In this document: positions 21,832 through 64,000 of the stretch, piece by piece
Layout: every line of letters begins with the position of its first letter
Position numbering within the stretch: position 1 is the first letter of the stretch
Source: Girardia tigrina
Taxonomy: Eukaryota
Reading direction: 5' to 3'
Assembly (NCBI GenBank): GCA_001938485.1
Contig: MQRK01213793.1
Coordinates: 18,349-82,348 of the forward strand
Length of the DNA stretch: 64,000 bases
Position numbers and translations under genes: made by a program
Notes under the pieces: generated by a model
What the model was told of the DNA's origin: nothing
Seen by the model: only the letters and a program-made list of their open reading frames with translations
Databases searched by the model: none

Positions 21832-23120
21832 TTGGGTTGTTCGGAAAGTAATTTCGTTTTTTCCCGACAGAGGATTTAATTATATTTTTTAATCCCAACT
21901 TCACAATTAAGCCGCATAATCATTATATGTTCTGAGAAGTGAAAAAGCAAGGCTTATGTGTGAAAAAGTTCAATTGATTTTACGCAGTAGATTTTGGTTG
22001 GTGCCCTTTTAAATATGGAGAGTAATAATCAGCATTTTCTTCATATTTTACTTTTTTACTATATAAAAGGTAAAATGAAGTTCAAGCAAGAAAGAAATTA
22101 ACCAATGTTTATGGAGAAGATGTGTCGACAATACGCCAGTGCCAGAACTGGTTTGTAAACTTTCTATCCGGCAATTTTGATGTCGAAGATGTACAACGTT
22201 CTGGAAGGCCGATTGAAGCTGAAAAAGACACGATAAAGGCATTAAAAGGCATTAAGTTGATGTAAACCGGCGAATAACAACAAACAGATCGCTAAGAGGT
22301 TACATTTATCGAATTCAACTGTTTATGACCACCTGAAAGGCATGGGTTTAACCTTGAAGCTCGATATATGGGTTCCCCATGTCCTCACGGAGAGACATTT
22401 GTATCGTCGCGTTTACGTATGTGATTCGCTCCTCAAACGTCACCAAAATGATTCATTTTTGAAGCGCATCATTACTGGGGACAAAAAATGGTATATAACG
22501 ATGTCAAACGCAAGAGATCATGGTGGAGAAAAGATGAACCGGCTCAAAGCATTTCGAAAGCCAATATCCATAAAAAAAGGAGATGCTGTCTATTTGGTGG
22601 GATTTTAAAGGAGTCGTTTTTTTCAGTTTTTACCGAATAACACAACAATTAATTCGGAAGTCTACTGTCATCATCTGGACAAACTGAATGATTCAATTCA
22701 ACAGAAATGGCCAGAAGTAATCATCAGAAAAGGTGTAGTGTTCCACGAAGATAATGCGAGACCTCATATAAGTTTGGTCACTCACCAAAAGCTTTTACAG
22801 CTTGAATGGTATACACTGCCATTCCCACCATATACTCCAGATCTGGCGCTTTTTGATTATTATTTGTTCCTGTCACTGCAAAAAGTTTTGGACAGTAAAA
22901 CCTTTACTTCAAATAAAGACGTCAAAAATCACCTGGATCAGTTTTTTTGCCAGCAAAGACCAAAAATTTTATTAGCGTGGAATCATGCTACTACCAGAAA
23001 TATGGCAAAATGTTTTGGATCACAATAACCAATATATAATTTAATAAAATATATTTTTATTATACGAAGATCGTCTTTCATTTTCACCAAAAAAACGAAA
23101 TTACTTTCCGTACAACTCAA
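21832..23120 (+). mobile_element. Full-length mariner element, frameshifted transposase
   Basis: TA|TTGGGTTGTTCGGAAAGTAATTTCG ... CGAAATTACTTTCCGTACAACTCAA|TA; WVPHVL, ITGD, HEDNARPH, YTPDLALFDY motifs. Confidence 0.95.
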
Positions 23121-24858: not shown

Positions 24859-26163
24859 TAGTGTGTCCCATAAATAGTTGGAAATATGAACATAATACCG
24901 ACACTTCAAAAAATAAAAAAAATTAAAACGATTATATTTTTATCAGATTCAACATAGAGTAAAGTTTTGTTTAAATAGTTGAAACATTGTTATTACTTTT
25001 ACGGCGGACTTACAAATAAGAATCTACCTTTGAGTGATAAATTACTGTTAGTGAAGCATTATTACTTGCAAGGAGAGTCGGTTACTGGAGCGATACGTAG
25101 GCATCACATAGAGAAAAACATAACAAAGAATTCTGAGAAACTTTCCCATTTAACAGTGGATTATTTGCTGAAGAACTTCTTGGAAACAGGTTCATTAAAT
25201 AAACGAAGTCCTCCTGGTCGAAAAGAGAACGATGAAAATGTTAACGTCATAGCTGAGATTGGAGAAGTTAAATCTGTTTGCTCTGCAAGTCAGTTAACAA
25301 AATTATCGAAGTCTACTGTCCATCGTATGTACACAAACTTAACATGTTCACTTACAAAAAGCAGGATGAACACTTTGTTTCTGCTAACGCACAACAAGAA
25401 AGACATGCATTTTGTGAAAAATTCCTCGCACAAGTGGATGCAGATCCTGATTTCCTGGACAGAATCCTATTAACTGATGAGTCCATCTTCCACTGCAATG
25501 CTCATTTAAATAAGCATAACGATAGGATTTGGGCACCAAAAAGCAGTTTTCCTCCTTCAAATCCCAGTTTCCCTGCTAAACAATAACCCCAGAAAATAAT
25601 GGTCCGTGCTGTATTTTTATCACCAGTGTGCATTGGACCTTTCTTTTTTAATTCCACAGTCACAACTGAGAGCTATCAGCAAATGCTGAAGGATTATGTA
25701 ATTCAGAACTTAAAGAAGCACAAAAAGTTCATATTTCAGCAGGATGGGGCAACGCCTCACACTGGATTGAACTCCAAAGAGTTTTTGAAACAAGAATTTG
25801 GAGAAGATGCTGTAATAAGCCGAGGGTTTCCCTTTGCTTGGCCAGAATATTCACCCGATTTGACACTAGCAGATTTTGGATTGTGGCCCAATCTTAAAAT
25901 GAAAGTGTGTTAAGAACTATAATTCAGTGGAAGAACTAAAAACTGCTATTCAAAATGAATTTCATTCACTGCCTCAAAGTTTTTTTTCTAATTGTGTAAA
26001 CTCAGTTATTGAGAGATGTGCTTTGTGTTTTGAGGCCGATGGTGAAAATTTCTAAAGCTTATTTGTATTAAAAACTTTATTATACCTGAACATGTTTGTA
26101 ATTACTCGGCTTTGAAAAATGCAAATTTAGTTTGAAATTTCCAACTATTTATGGGATACACGA
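24859..26163 (+). mobile_element. rosa/Visitor (DD41D-like; here DD42D spacing) Tc1/mariner element, frameshifted
   Basis: TIRs GTGTGTCCCATAAATAGTTGGAAAT / ATTTCCAACTATTTATGGGATACAC; LLTDES, FQQDGATPH, WPEYSPDLTLADF motifs. Confidence 0.85.
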
Positions 26164-36065: not shown

Positions 36066-36620
36066 ATAAAATTGGTGTCATGACAAAACATCCAAAAGAC
36101 AAAACACCCATCCAATATTTTGTTCACAGCTGTATAGAAATAGTCAGTCCTCACTAAATTATCTTTTTTTTTCTAAATGCAACTAACTAACTTCAAACTT
36201 TAGTGGACCTACTGAATTTTTAAGATGAGATTTTTCATAAAACAAATTTCTGAAACATTTCTTTTGTCATTTTTTTTTCTTTTTCATCCCAGTCACAAGA
36301 CTATGTCCACAGTTGTAAAATAAAATAGCCATTTGATAGTTCTCAATCGAAATGTCCTAAAACGCACTCAGTCTACTGGACGTGTCGCACTGTATGAATT
36401 TTAAAATTCCCTTAATTTTATTCATTATTTTTTTATATTTTTAGAATTTTGAATTCTATAGTCACGAAAATATTTAGCTAAAAATTATTTAAAAAATTAA
36501 CAAATTAAAACCTGTCTGTTCGATTATTGCAGACTGTTAAAATTCAATTAGTGTTTGACAAATATTGATATTCATTTACAACTAACGCAATAAATGAAAT
36601 TATCAGTGAAATTTTGTCAG

Positions 36621-36754
36621 ATTCTCGAGATCATTAAACAAACAACCGACGAAGAATATTCTGCCAAGCTCATTCTCAGATTAGAAAATTTTTATTTGGA
36701 AAGAGCACTTCTTCAAGATGGAAATTTCAGGCGTTGTCCAAATCGAGGCTGCGA
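36621..36754 (+). CDS. RNF19: RNF19-like exon 3, RING1-IBR linker and start of IBR (ILEIIKQ...ERALLQDGNFRRCPNRGC)
   Basis: Acceptor ttttgtcag|, phase 0 start, donor GA|GTAATA (phase 2). Resembles the RBR linker helix followed by RxCP..xC. Confidence 0.85.
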
Positions 36755-37089
36755 GTAATAGTTTATTGTTTAATACTCCACTATGTAAACTAATATAGTT
36801 ATAATAATAAAAATCAAAGGTTCCCATGAGTTTCATTGATAAAGTATAGGTTTATAAAAGAAATGTCAATTTAATATTTATTAAGACCACTAATTTGATT
36901 TTTATTATATTTATTTGTATCACAACTTGAATCACCCCTAGGAGAATTCTCCATAAAACTTTCGTAGCTATTCATCATTCTTAATTGATAAATTTAATTC
37001 TATTTTTAAACGTCTTATTATCTAAACAAATTTAAATTACAATTTATTTATAATTCGATTTCAAAATAATTTATAATATAAATTACAAA

Positions 37090-50800: not shown

Positions 50801-50851
50801 TGGTGATTTTCAAATTGATCTTTTATTAGTATTTGTAATTTACTGTTTTAG

Positions 50852-50993
50852 GTGAAATAAAAATGTGTCCCAAATGCCACACGTACGTGTTGAAGATGAA
50901 TGATGGGAGCTGTAATCATATGGTTTGTGCGGTCTGCGGCTGTGAGTTTTGTTGGCTCTGCATGAGGCAGATCACGGATATGCACTATTTGAG
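50852..50993 (+). CDS. RNF19: RNF19-like exon 5, RING2 with catalytic Cys ([46 protein letters not shown])
   Basis: Acceptor tgttttag|, donor AG|[29 protein letters not shown] is the RNF19A/B RING2 signature. Confidence 0.95.
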
Positions 50994-58724: not shown

Positions 58725-60198
58725 CATCCAAATTTTTATTTATCAATTCACTAAGCTAAGTGAGCGAGTAATTAAACAAACGGTCCAAAGAAATTTTTAG
58801 AATCAAATTTTCATAAAACCACAATATAAATGTATATATACGTATTTATTTTTAATTAATTTTTAAAAAAAATTTAAAATTCTTTTTAAAAAAAATTAAT
58901 TTCCATAGGGATAATTCAGTCAAGTAGCATCTCTATCGCAGTTCTTAGAATAAAATTACGTAAAATAAAATAAATTGAAATGTTCAATGTTATCAAATAT
59001 TTATTGAAAAAGAAGGCAACAGAAACTCATAAAGACATGTAAGATATCTTAGGAGACTCCGTTTAGATGATCAAAATCTGCCACAATTCTTGAAATCGTG
59101 GAAACCATCCAAAATATTAAGGATATATGTATCTCAGACAAAAGAAAGTTTTATATCATTACTATTGAATTAAGGAAACATTTTAGACAAGATGTTTGCC
59201 GTGAAAATTGACAATGGATCACAACATTCAGAAAATAAGACTTTGTCAAGAGAGCTTAGACCATTTAAATCAAACCGAAGTAATTTTCTCCAGCAAGTTT
59301 TTTACGAAAAATAAAACTTAGATTCACCATTTTATCCCTCAAACCAAGCAAAAAAGTAAAACAATGAATGTATAGGAGTTTTCCACTAAATTTCCCACCC
59401 CCACGACGTCAGTCGTTAGAAATGCGAAAAATATTACTAATTGAATATTTTTACAACAATATTACTCTAAATTTGTAGACTGAGGAGATAAAAAATCATG
59501 AAAATAGGTTTTGCTTTTCCTTCTTTCAGGCAAATACTCGTCCCCATACAAGTGTGGTAACAATTGAAAAATTGTGTGAAAAAAATTGTGTTGCAAAACT
59601 CGACACTGATTTGAATCCTAACTTATTCCCACAACTAAATTTTGTTAACAATCCAGACGTTAGTGTTCCAAAACAATCTCCAGAGAGGAAATTTTTACAT
59701 AATTTACTTTGCAATTCTTTGGAAGTATGTTTTTTCATTCGAACATTGGTCAAAGTGTCATTTTAATTACTGGGGTGTGGAATTAAGGTCGCTGGTGAAC
59801 CTATTTTCCCTAAAAAATTACTAATTTTTTTTAATTTTAATTGTTTTTAAACATTAATTTACTATAAATACGAATTATTAATTTATTTTTCAAATAATTT
59901 AGGAATTATTAGTCCTTTATATTTAAATTAATTGCAATAGTTTTAAACATGAATGGGGAAAATTATATTTACCATTTTATATTGATTTTAAAAATTTTTG
60001 TCTAGTTTATGGCTTAATTAATTCTTAAGAGCAATTAGTTCTGTGATCCTAATGACTTAATTCATTTTTCTGAATCGTATCTTTTGTGAACCTAAAAGAA
60101 GTTTTTTTAAATTTTTAATTCATTCATAATTGATACAGCTTTCGTAGGATCTTTAATGTCCGACAAATTGCTGACACAACTTTGATCATTTGTATATA

Positions 60199-60525
60199 TG
60201 GGGGTAGCCATAAGTCGCTTTACCCAGTTTGATTTTCACTTTAAAAATTTTCAAAAATTTAAAGTTCACTAAAAACCCCTAACATACCCCCTCGTTTTTA
60301 AGATTTTTGAATTTTTCAACATTTCGAATAATTTTCACGTAGGAGAGGAGAGATCCGAGGGCCCATGTGAAATTATAGAAAAAAATCACAAAAGAAGTTA
60401 ACAGTTAAAAAATTCAAAAATCTTAAAAACGAGGGGGGACGTTAGGGGTTTTTGGTGAACTTTAAATTTTTGAAAATTTTTAAAGTGAACATCAAACTGG
60501 GTAAAGCGACTTATGGCCACCCCTG
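60199..60525. mobile_element. Foldback MITE with ~115-bp arms, partly Gypsy-derived
   Basis: TA flanks; outer TIR CAGGGGTGGCCATAAGTCGCTTTACCC; inner arms and spacer similar to 12262-12420. Confidence 0.8.
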
Positions 60526-60985
60526 TATATTGCTGCTTTAAAGACATCGTAATGCTATTGAAAATTTATCAACTATAATTAAAAAGACAAAACATAAATG
60601 ATCTCTGGTAATGTTGCTTTAATTGCAGTTACAAATGTGTCTCTTACTGTATCTATTTCACTTTAATTGATGGAGATTGTTTCCTCTCTTCGTTTTATTT
60701 TTGCCCTACATTCGGAAACACTCCTCGAAAATTGAATAGGATTAGAAATCAAAATATTTTACATATCAATTTTAAGGAAGACTTACACAATATTCATATG
60801 AAGGGTTAGTTTTAAGTTTCGCTAAAATAGTTTATTATTTTTTTAGTTTTGAAAATTTAAAGGAAATAAATTAGAAAATTAAAATGCAGAGTAAAAATAT
60901 GATAAAATGAGTACGTGTTTAAAATATGTTTACACTTATAGCAATTAATATATTTTATAAGTGGAATAAGTTTAAATAAAGTTTA

Positions 60986-62491
60986 TGTTGGATATTAGAT
61001 ATTTTAATTATTTGAAATATTTAATATTTGCTTTTTTGATAAATATTTTGTTTGAATATTATCAATTAAACATTGTTTTGAAAATAAACTTTTCACGTGT
61101 TACAAGCTATCCGGGCATAATGAATGATATGAAAATCGTTTTGGAGTTTTTAGAGAAATTTGATGGAAGCATCAATTTCGAGATTTGGCAGAAGAAATTT
61201 GAAATGATCATGAAAATCCAGAAGATTACTGATTCAGCCCCGTATCTCCCTTTTTTTACTATCGGGGGTTGCACTGAACATCTATGTGGAATAGGACGAG
61301 AAGACGCAAAGCAGCTGCGATCGGTTCTTCAAGATATTAAACAATTCGTTCGGCCTGACTAGACGTTCTGCGTACAGTCAATTAATAAATTTACAGTATC
61401 ACGATGGCGAGACTATCGATGAATATGCGTCTCAGGTGAAGATGTTAGCAACGAAGGTCGACGATCTAACAAAGGCTGCATTCATGGCTGGACTGCCTTT
61501 CAAGTTGCAGGTGGATTTGGAACGGGCCGGCGACTAACCCCTGACCGAAATGATCGAATATAGCCGCATGTATTTGGGGATTAAAAAGGGTTTATTACAG
61601 GGTTCAATGACAGCAATACAACACGGAAACAACAACAAAGAAACACGGAGTTCCGGAAGTCAGGGCGAACTCGCTAAACCAAGAGCAAATCTTCAGAAAG
61701 AACCCTATGTTCATCATGAGAGAGACACTAAATTGAAGGAAAGTAATCATCATGAGGGTTCTCAGTGGCAATCAAACAGACAAACAATATGCTACAAATG
61801 TCAGAAACCGGGTCATATCGCAAAATATTGTCGGTCNNNNNNNNNNNNNNNNNNNNNNNNNNNNNNNNNNNNNNNNNNNNNNNNNNNNNNNGCGTTGCCG
61901 ACGATGATCGTCACCGTAAATGACAGGTCAGCCACAGCGTTGATTGATTCGGGTTGTTCGAAAACGGTTGTTTTAAAAGGGTTAGTTAGTGATTGTATGT
62001 TGTTTTCTGACGGCGAAAGTATGGTTTTGGCGAATGGAAAAAGTGTTAGAGTGGGTTCGGGTGAAATGCAGTTGAATATAAATGGTAGGATCATTAGGGT
62101 GGAATGTTCGGCCATGGAACATTTGCCGTATGGTCTAGGGATCTTAATAGGTAAATTGGGCGGCGTGAATATTAATAAGGGTGTTATTGAGTTCGGTGAA
62201 GAGGAAATTAAAGGGATAGATAGTAGCTTGAGTTGTACTGCATCGGATGCGCCTCTTGTTAGTATAAAAAGCATAATTTTGAAATTGAGTTTAGGGAAAA
62301 TTGGTCGATTAAATGGAATTGGAAAAGTGAGGCTCTGAGTCATCTTCCGAATCGTCAATCAGTTTTTAAGGACAACAAATTAAAAGTTTATTTTCAAAAC
62401 AATGTTTAATTGATAATATTCAAACAAAATATTTATCAAAAAAGCAAATATTAAACATTTCAAATAATTAAAATATCTAATATCCCCAACA
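60986..62491 (+). mobile_element. Gypsy-like gag-protease element bounded by inverted ~108-bp LTR-like termini
   Basis: EKFDGS..FEIW.KKFE gag start, CYKCQKPGHIAKYC zinc knuckle, ALIDSG aspartic protease. 60986-61093 is the reverse complement of 62382-62491; GTTTA on both sides. Confidence 0.85.
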
Positions 62492-63039
62492 GTTTAAAAT
62501 AAACAATTAATGAATTAATATTTTTAGAAATATTTTTTTAATAAAAGGGCTTATTGTAAATTTAAATTAATTAGTTTTTATGATAAAGTTTCGTAAGAAT
62601 GTAAAAGTATTTTACATTTTAAATTTTGTAATTTTTTTTGTAAAAAAATGCAAAATTATTTTAAGGTAGATTTTGTAATATTTTTGCAAAAAATGTAAAA
62701 TTATTTTTAAGGTTTAATTTTCGTGAATTTTCAAAATTTAATCGAAAAGAATTGTAAATTAATTTTGGGCGATATAATTGAATTAATTTGTTTAAGTATG
62801 TGAATTGTTGATATTAATAAATTTTTGTGGTGTTAAATTCTTCAGAAGACTTCAGAATGTGATAATAATGAAAGTGGCATAAACGCTACTTACAATCCAT
62901 ATTTAAACAAAAAAATTCATATGAAAGTTTTTATCTCAGATAATTTGAGAAAAAAGTTTTATACAATGTCTTTTAAAGTTAACACTTTAAAATTACAAAT
63001 ATTTATTTTTTACATTCTATGCTAAAAAATTCTTTTCAG

Positions 63040-63202
63040 TCCATCTGGTTGCACATTTTGGGGCCGAAGACAGTGGAATGTTGAAAAGCGAGCTCTATGG
63101 CAAATGGGTACTCTCATTGGAGCACCGTTAGCCATTGGGTTTTTAGCGGCATTGGCAATTCCCGCCATGCTTATTGGAATTCCTCTCTACGTTGGTCGCA
63201 AG
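63040..63202 (+). CDS. RNF19: RNF19-like exon 6 ([13 protein letters not shown]...[35 protein letters not shown]), hydrophobic/transmembrane segment; gene continues beyond window
   Basis: Acceptor cttttcag|T (AG+T=Ser), donor AAG|[15 protein letters not shown]...GAP...AIPAM.IGIP.YVGRK is characteristic of RNF19A/B. Confidence 0.95.
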
Positions 63203-64000
63203 GTTCATATTCATTTTTATTTTTATGTAGAAAGAAATATTTCGTGTGTACGAAATAATGGCAGTTTTTAAGGATTATTATTAAAATACATTATCTCAAT
63301 TTAGAGAAAAACTTTTAATGAAAATAAAAAACTATAATCTATACATGTTTGCTATCGAGTTACAAGTTTATATATTCCAGTTATGGAGATGATTATTTTT
63401 TTAAAACCCTGCGAGCTGATTATTGATTTGTAAAGATTTCTTCCCGAAAAAAGTTTTCTAAATATTTAAAAATGTGACATGAGATCAGACGTAGTACAGA
63501 AGAATAGATCCTTTTCTATTGACTAATGTTGGACGCTGAAGTTACAATTTTTAATGCGCTTCCTTTATTTGGTGACAGTTCTTCTATGATATTACAGTTT
63601 TCCCAGGATATAGGAAATAATAGTTGACCTGTTGTAGACAATCAAACAGTTACCATGACCTTTGTCTGTACACTGCACAATAATGTATCCATTATAAGAT
63701 TTATCAATTGTTATAACTAGAGCACGGAATTTAATGACCTTAAAAATCAAAAATAAAATTATTTATAAAATTAATTGAGAGTTTTTTTCTGATTTTCAAG
63801 TTTGCACATCGAGAATTGTAAGAAAAGAATCTTTAAACTTTTATGAACGAATCGTTTCAGTATATGAAATAGGATAGACATGAATAACTGATATAACTTT
63901 TATATTTTCAAGATAGTAGTTATACGAAATAAATATTAGGAACATATGTAGTTTCTTGCATAATAATCATTTTTATCGTTCTAATCTGCGGATTATTTTT

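Follow-up and report, generated by a model that had tools for sequence, protein, structure and literature searches.

DIRS elements have inverted terminal repeats around gag and a tyrosine recombinase, and are not known to carry a protease or to make a target-site duplication (TSD). Inverted termini of 40–270 bp that start with TGT are found in the Ginger1 families, which have an integrase-like transposase and 4-bp CCGG/CCGT TSDs, according to the accessible text of Bao et al. 2010 (PMC2836005); the same text calls the change from an LTR element to a DNA transposon unclear and suggests that two LTRs came to flank an integrase by chance. The accessible part of PMC12312487 deals with DNA transposons. 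It has been reported that complex LTR elements arise through template switching, in which two elements become fused around a shared LTR (accessible text of Sabot and Schulman 2007, PMC1950507). The available portions of PMC12657518 and PMC9278108 describe defective HIV-1 proviruses that result from aberrant strand transfer and show deletions, asymmetric LTRs and inversions of unspecified kind; the main text of PMC12657518 does not mention inversions. In a literature search whose coverage mostly excluded subscription and older virology papers, no description was found of Gypsy copies with two U3 ends and a TSD.

In the window, i.e., the whole 64,000-nucleotide stretch of Girardia tigrina DNA analysed here, there is a dead copy of an abundant ordinary Gypsy family that has the same U3 (left) LTR end at both tips. 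This TSD-flanked two-U3 copy was likely inserted in one step by the family integrase from faulty DNA, most likely a short plus-strand product that had jumped onto the opposite strand while reverse transcription was under way; we give this reading a probability of about 0.6.

Structure of the Unit

The unit spans 60986–62491 (~1.5 kb), starting with TGTTGG and ending with CCAACA, and its arms (60986–61093, equivalent to LTR 1–108, and 62382–62491) are inverted copies of each other that differ by a single substitution and a 2-nt indel; LTR position 1 is therefore found at both ends, in place of the canonical layout with U3 on the left and U5 on the right. The alignment agrees with the boundaries and the ~108-bp inverted ends proposed in the initial annotation, and GTTTA was read directly on both sides as it had stated. 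The gag (CCHC) and aspartic protease that it placed inside the unit were recovered as the Pfam domains gag, zf-CCHC (E 7.8e-05) and aspartic protease (E 0.001), of which only zf-CCHC passes the curated cut-off. Two details of that annotation need correction: pol was said to stop ~25 bp before the inverted arm, but there is no unrelated spacer and the family sequence continues into the arm with a 5-nt overlap; and the internal gap, placed at 61837–61890, is present but ends at 61891 and comprises 55 letters.

The copy is truncated 3' of the protease and then capped by inverted LTR 1–108. Its coding region is broken by a frame change and a stop in gag and by a frame change in the protease region, and the unit has no PPT, RT, RNase H, integrase or U5 end. 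The normal copying route is closed to this dead two-U3 copy, and nothing about it suggests a function.

Table 1. Features of the unit and its surroundings in the window, and further units with two U3 ends on other contigs.
Feature	Position or contig	Strand	Remark
RBR E3 ligase upstream exon, IBR domain	50839..50993 (start approximate)	+	Unit lies in the intron after it
Target host repeat, left part	60797..60985		High-copy
TSD, left copy, GTTTA	60981..60985	+	Present once only in host-repeat paralogues
Complete 119-bp LTR (TGTTGG...GTTACA), U3 end outward	60986..61104	+	Identical 119 bp form the direct LTR of normal copies
Primer-binding site (PBS)	61105..61116	+	Complementary to tRNA-Lys(TTT) bases 1–12
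gag with CCHC knuckle (about 61790–61831)	61120..61836	+	Frame change near 61250, stop near 61535
Gap of 55 N	61837..61891		Length equals family spacing at that place
Aspartic protease (DSG 61946–61954) and pol start	61892..62386	+	Ends 5' of RT domain; frame change near 62265
5-nt overlap AAAAG	62382..62386		Common to pol (+) and LTR 104–108 (−); junction single-copy in genome
Inverted truncated LTR (positions 1–108 with 2-nt insertion), U3 end outward	62382..62491	−	
TSD, right copy, GTTTA	62492..62496	+	
Target host repeat, right part	62497..62900 (end approximate)		
RBR E3 ligase next exon	63040..63202	+	In phase with upstream exon; joined to it in a spliced contig (run X8)
Two-U3 unit, TSD GATTT	C11525		253 bp; LTR plus PBS, then two additional letters and a full-length inverted LTR
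Two-U3 unit, TSD AAGTG	C25808		871 bp
Two-U3 unit, TSD TTAAA	C234464		419 bp
Two-U3 unit, TSD TAATT	C81237		232 bp, two internal switches
Two-U3 unit, TSD AAAGA	C251611		2402 bp, with gaps

Host Locus and Target Site

The RBR E3 ligase gene that holds the unit, which we take to be RNF19-like, has a further exon at 36594–36755. Elsewhere in the window, 60194–60530 is occupied by a MITE-like element whose inverted arms are 127 nt long and 94% complementary, and broken reading frames at 22074–23025 and 24979–25910 have, by eye, the look of mariner/Tc1-type transposases. The target repeat (60797–62900) is uncharacterised, AT-rich and high-copy, with 1156 candidates and a variable inner length.

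The two flanks of the unit are the halves of one such repeat. Among 24 other copies fetched of the 39 scored, 22 carry the TSD word once, the left flank running straight into the right flank with no bases lost. Judged by these paralogues, GTTTA is a true TSD; the empty sites point to the exclusion of two insertions followed by a deletion, an explanation that they can be said to have largely refuted. The initial annotation had asked for a tabulation of TSDs in the parent family, and had considered that a strong fondness of the family for GTTTA might let two head-to-head insertions plus a deletion suffice. The tabulation speaks against this: GTTTA occurs in 2 of 107 family flanks, one of them the window locus itself, and is not a preferred site, while a TSD-like match arises in 31 of 5671 random flank pairs (0.0055).

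The Parent Gypsy Family

The genome (1.43 Gb in 255,254 pieces, a short-read assembly) contains at least 1469 sites that match the first 33 bases of the LTR exactly, and the left half of the unit is 95–97% identical to 39 other scored copies. Copies of the parent family are ~3.9 kb long and have 119-bp direct LTRs with TG...CA ends, a PBS and a PPT, and a 5-bp AT-rich TSD. One gap-free copy of 3873 bp holds gag, protease, RT, an RNase H-like domain and integrase in Gypsy order, the rve and Integrase_H2C2 matches being weak and below the cut-off. Domain order, direct LTRs, PBS/PPT and the fixed short TSD all place the family in Ty3/Gypsy; a protein search with its pol returned 20 relatives with one generic name only and no Gypsy clade name. 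DUF7047 (Pfam) follows the RT domain in the family pol (copy L064:927-2381) and in all 20 relatives.

When 55 copies anchored at the 5' LTR were fetched at length, 31 had a direct LTR end, one had an inverted arm and 23 gave no resolution, so 31 of 32 resolved copies are direct. The 22 two-LTR copies have an exact 5-bp TSD in 18 cases, one mismatch in 2 and no match in 2; their LTR pairs differ by 0–5 substitutions, and the differences between the arms of the window unit can thus be read as ordinary ageing. Many family copies are internally deleted with both direct LTRs and the TSD kept (e.g., L007, L008, L120, L191, L210), and 6 of 13 short fetches turned out to be solo LTRs with TSDs.

The 12 bases of the PBS are complementary to bases 1–12 of tRNA-Lys(TTT), and all four genome hits to the pattern were starts of such tRNA genes. 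In the window (61105–61116) and in nearly all 5' LTR copies, the PBS pairs with the 5' end of the tRNA, not with its 3' end. A tRNA-Lys(TTT) primer would need to be cut after base 12; the literature search returned no description of priming by the 5' part of tRNA-Lys.

Recurrence of Units with Two U3 Ends

The search for similar units asked for two LTR starts only, with no TSD requirement, and facing pairs were counted among the matches listed, i.e., 427 distinct LTR starts of at least 1469 and 200 of 840 U5 ends. Eight contigs carried two of the 427 listed LTR starts, and in five of these the starts face inward (Table 1). Each of the five inward-facing pairs has its own exact 5-bp TSD, and four are N-free. 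Chance would give at most 0.26 inward neighbours within 2.5 kb, which multiplied by the TSD match rate of 0.0055 comes to ~0.001. The layout is thus present in ~1/100 of the listed insertions, a minimum estimate, since a unit was counted only when its two ends were both listed and lay on the same contig.

Together with the window unit, exact TSDs are found in 6/6 units, with six differing layouts and junctions. The junction of the window unit has one match in the genome when up to one mismatch is allowed, and C11525 at full length matches only itself among 40 scored candidates. Since every junction is different, the units represent separate events and not a family; the two-U3 event recurs, each unit being made anew, and none has been seen to spread. 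The earlier claim that the unit integrated as one piece with two copies of one LTR end is upheld by the empty-site paralogues and the five further TSD-flanked units, whereas the option of a non-autonomous TIR-like family moved in trans is not supported, the window junction being present once in the genome and all six junctions being different.

A seventh case, C230650, was counted apart. On its scaffold the sequence extends from the 5' LTR as far as the interior of the integrase region and then passes into an inverted right arm that lacks the 6 terminal nt, with a 16-bp flank duplication and a 3.2-kb gap; this end resembles a one-ended integration completed by host repair. Several other candidates were set aside: C26368 has a second element nested or adjacent, C14449 is a partial fold-back with no left end, and C179476, C214597 and C43918 are same-strand pairs. 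No U5/U5 unit with a TSD was found among the 200 listed U5 ends. The one outward U5 pair, C120419, was rejected because its flanks are inverted copies of each other and no TSD is present; both ends of this contig, including the flank, are inverted copies, which suggests a fold-back or an assembly artefact. The difference between U3/U3 (5/427) and U5/U5 (0/200) is not significant (p 0.15).

Origin of the Inserted DNA

Two U3 termini of this family were joined to one target with the family 5-bp stagger six times. A template-switch cDNA is, by inference, the likeliest origin of the donor. Plus-strand synthesis begins at the PPT and gives a strong-stop DNA that comprises LTR 1–119 and a copy of the primer. 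In the proposed mechanism, such strong-stop DNA would first be made from the PPT. The strand would then stop early, here at LTR 104–108, pair through AAAAG/CTTTT with the plus-sense pol template, and grow in the manner of a minus strand, passing protease, gag and PBS on its way back into the LTR. A second strong-stop strand could pair at the PBS/LTR and copy to the end, which would yield a linear molecule whose two sides each carry a PPT-defined U3 end. Insertion of both U3 ends into a single target, staggered by 5 bp, would follow, the step that the product itself displays. The short 12-nt PBS may, speculatively, weaken the normal second strand transfer and favour this error.

The short arms measure 108, 119, 69, about 74, 67 and about 85 nt and lie within the LTR in all six units (0.067 each for random breaks). 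Because one arm never exceeds 119 nt, the arms would fit plus-strand strong-stop DNA mis-priming on the opposite strand, although this rule is biased, since long inverted arms would be lost in short-read assembly or in the cell. The longer arm of C11525 ends 1 nt after the 12-nt PBS, near the expected end of full strong-stop DNA. The subfamily base at LTR 45 is the same in both arms of 6/6 units (48% of random pairs); a complete match of the first 67 arm bases, found in 24% of random pairs, is seen in 4 of the 5 other units. Overlaps of 5–7 nt are present at several joints; together with the filler letters of C11525 and C251611, they suit host end-joining as well as jumps of the reverse transcriptase. 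C17739 (3239–4862) has normal ends, the TSD GTAGA and an internal inversion of about positions 47–633 from the 5' LTR end, and this inversion and the two internal switches of C81237 imply that strand switches occur without a second donor. Self-priming, as in Tf1, was also considered; inspection by eye did not reveal the primer sequence in the LTR. It is probable that strong-stop DNA regularly jumps to the opposite strand as an error of reverse transcription.

Alternatively, one integrase complex might have inserted, staggered by 5 bp, the U3 ends of a long cDNA and of a short piece of double-stranded LTR, after which host end-joining fused the free inner ends. This is conceivable, though on balance unlikely. 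It would account for the TSDs and the overlaps, for junctions that are each unique, and for the filler or locally templated letters (C251611, C11525), the filler letters perhaps better than a strand switch does; the incomplete, duplication-flanked end of C230650 is a sign of host repair at insertion. In vitro, the integration of two separate donor ends is routine. However, it needs a supply of short double-stranded LTR pieces, C17739 is not simply produced in this way, and U5/U5 units would be predicted as well, of which none with a TSD was found among the 200 listed U5 ends (not significant).

An assembly artefact at the window locus, in which the N gap joins unrelated pieces or the inverted arm is chimeric, is improbable. 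The assembly is from short reads and in 255,254 pieces, the gap falls within the unit, and the palindromic contig C120419 indicates that fold-back structures are present in it. That fold-back, however, has inverted flanks and no direct TSD, and four gap-free units have the same layout. Moreover, the flanks belong to one host repeat, the consecutive exons are in phase and spliced together in run X8, and the gap length equals the family spacing; it seems, on these indirect grounds, that the gap lies within a single locus. Two sequencing runs of one study (X1, 0.83; X2, 0.70) are good carriers of the right flank of the unit. Reads of four runs on 60540–63400 were dominated by family copies, with no listed piece across the unit or its junction. 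Across 33 copies, the identity of one half of the unit to a given copy is weakly correlated with that of the other half (rho 0.26, p 0.15).

A rearrangement after normal insertion is quite improbable. Replication would have changed strands within pol and run back over the 5' LTR, then regained the right flank by way of the 3-nt ACA found at both LTR termini; the presence of ACA at both termini means that such a return would preserve the TSD. Generic switching, however, should mostly continue into the flank, whereas 5/5 pairs return exactly at the terminus even though the search ignored the TSD. That the units form a non-autonomous TIR-like family which an integrase mobilises in trans is very improbable: the inverted TGT...ACA ends and the TSD resemble Ginger termini (as given in the accessible text of PMC2836005), but the single match of the window junction, the self-only match of C11525 and six layouts in six units argue against it. 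A history in which two elements inserted independently head to head, a deletion followed and the TSD words matched by chance is hardly credible despite the abundance of the family, given that no host base is lost, chance matches and GTTTA flanks are rare, and the TSDs are exact in every unit.

Implications

The six independent insertions in one family show that an LTR integrase precisely inserts two-U3 DNA in a living germ line. The one-step route to terminal inverted repeats can be counted in any long-read genome. Two-U3 copies escape LTR finders and could be misfiled as MITEs, and their facing LTRs might give putative double-stranded RNA against the family.

Comparison with Known Systems

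The window unit shares its LTR, PBS, gag, protease, TG...CA ends and 5-bp AT-rich TSD with an ordinary Ty3/Gypsy insertion and differs in that its second LTR is inverted and truncated. It resembles the elements of Sabot and Schulman (PMC1950507, accessible text) in that an abnormal switch of the reverse transcriptase would have given a rearranged cDNA which was inserted whole, but the switch here would be to the opposite strand and leave two U3 ends. The aberrant plus-strand transfers of HIV-1 are similar in working to this proposed switch, although two U3 ends with a TSD are not described in the available portions of PMC12657518 and PMC9278108. As in DIRS, inverted terminal repeats flank gag; unlike DIRS, the parent family has a protease, a DDE integrase and direct LTRs, and a TSD is present. 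Copies with a common internal junction and different TSDs, as in a MITE-like family, were not found, the junction having one match.

Ginger1 is alike in its inverted, TGT-starting, Gypsy-type ends (accessible text of PMC2836005); the window unit differs in being a single gag-protease copy with no transposase and with an unspecific 5-bp TSD. Measured against Ginger1 and Ginger2, the unit has only gag and protease between its arms, and the TSDs are 5-bp and AT-rich. The two-U3 units show a one-step path from direct LTRs to terminal inverted repeats, the step that the available text of PMC2836005 leaves open for the origin of Ginger. It is an improbable extension that Gypsy elements regularly (here in at least ~1/100 insertions) give rise, in one step, to copies of themselves that are bounded by TIRs and flanked by TSDs, and that those keeping the integrase are the raw material of Ginger-type cut-and-paste transposons. 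If this were true, a one-step route would replace the two chance insertions suggested by Bao et al. (PMC2836005, accessible text), and C230650 would be a near miss.
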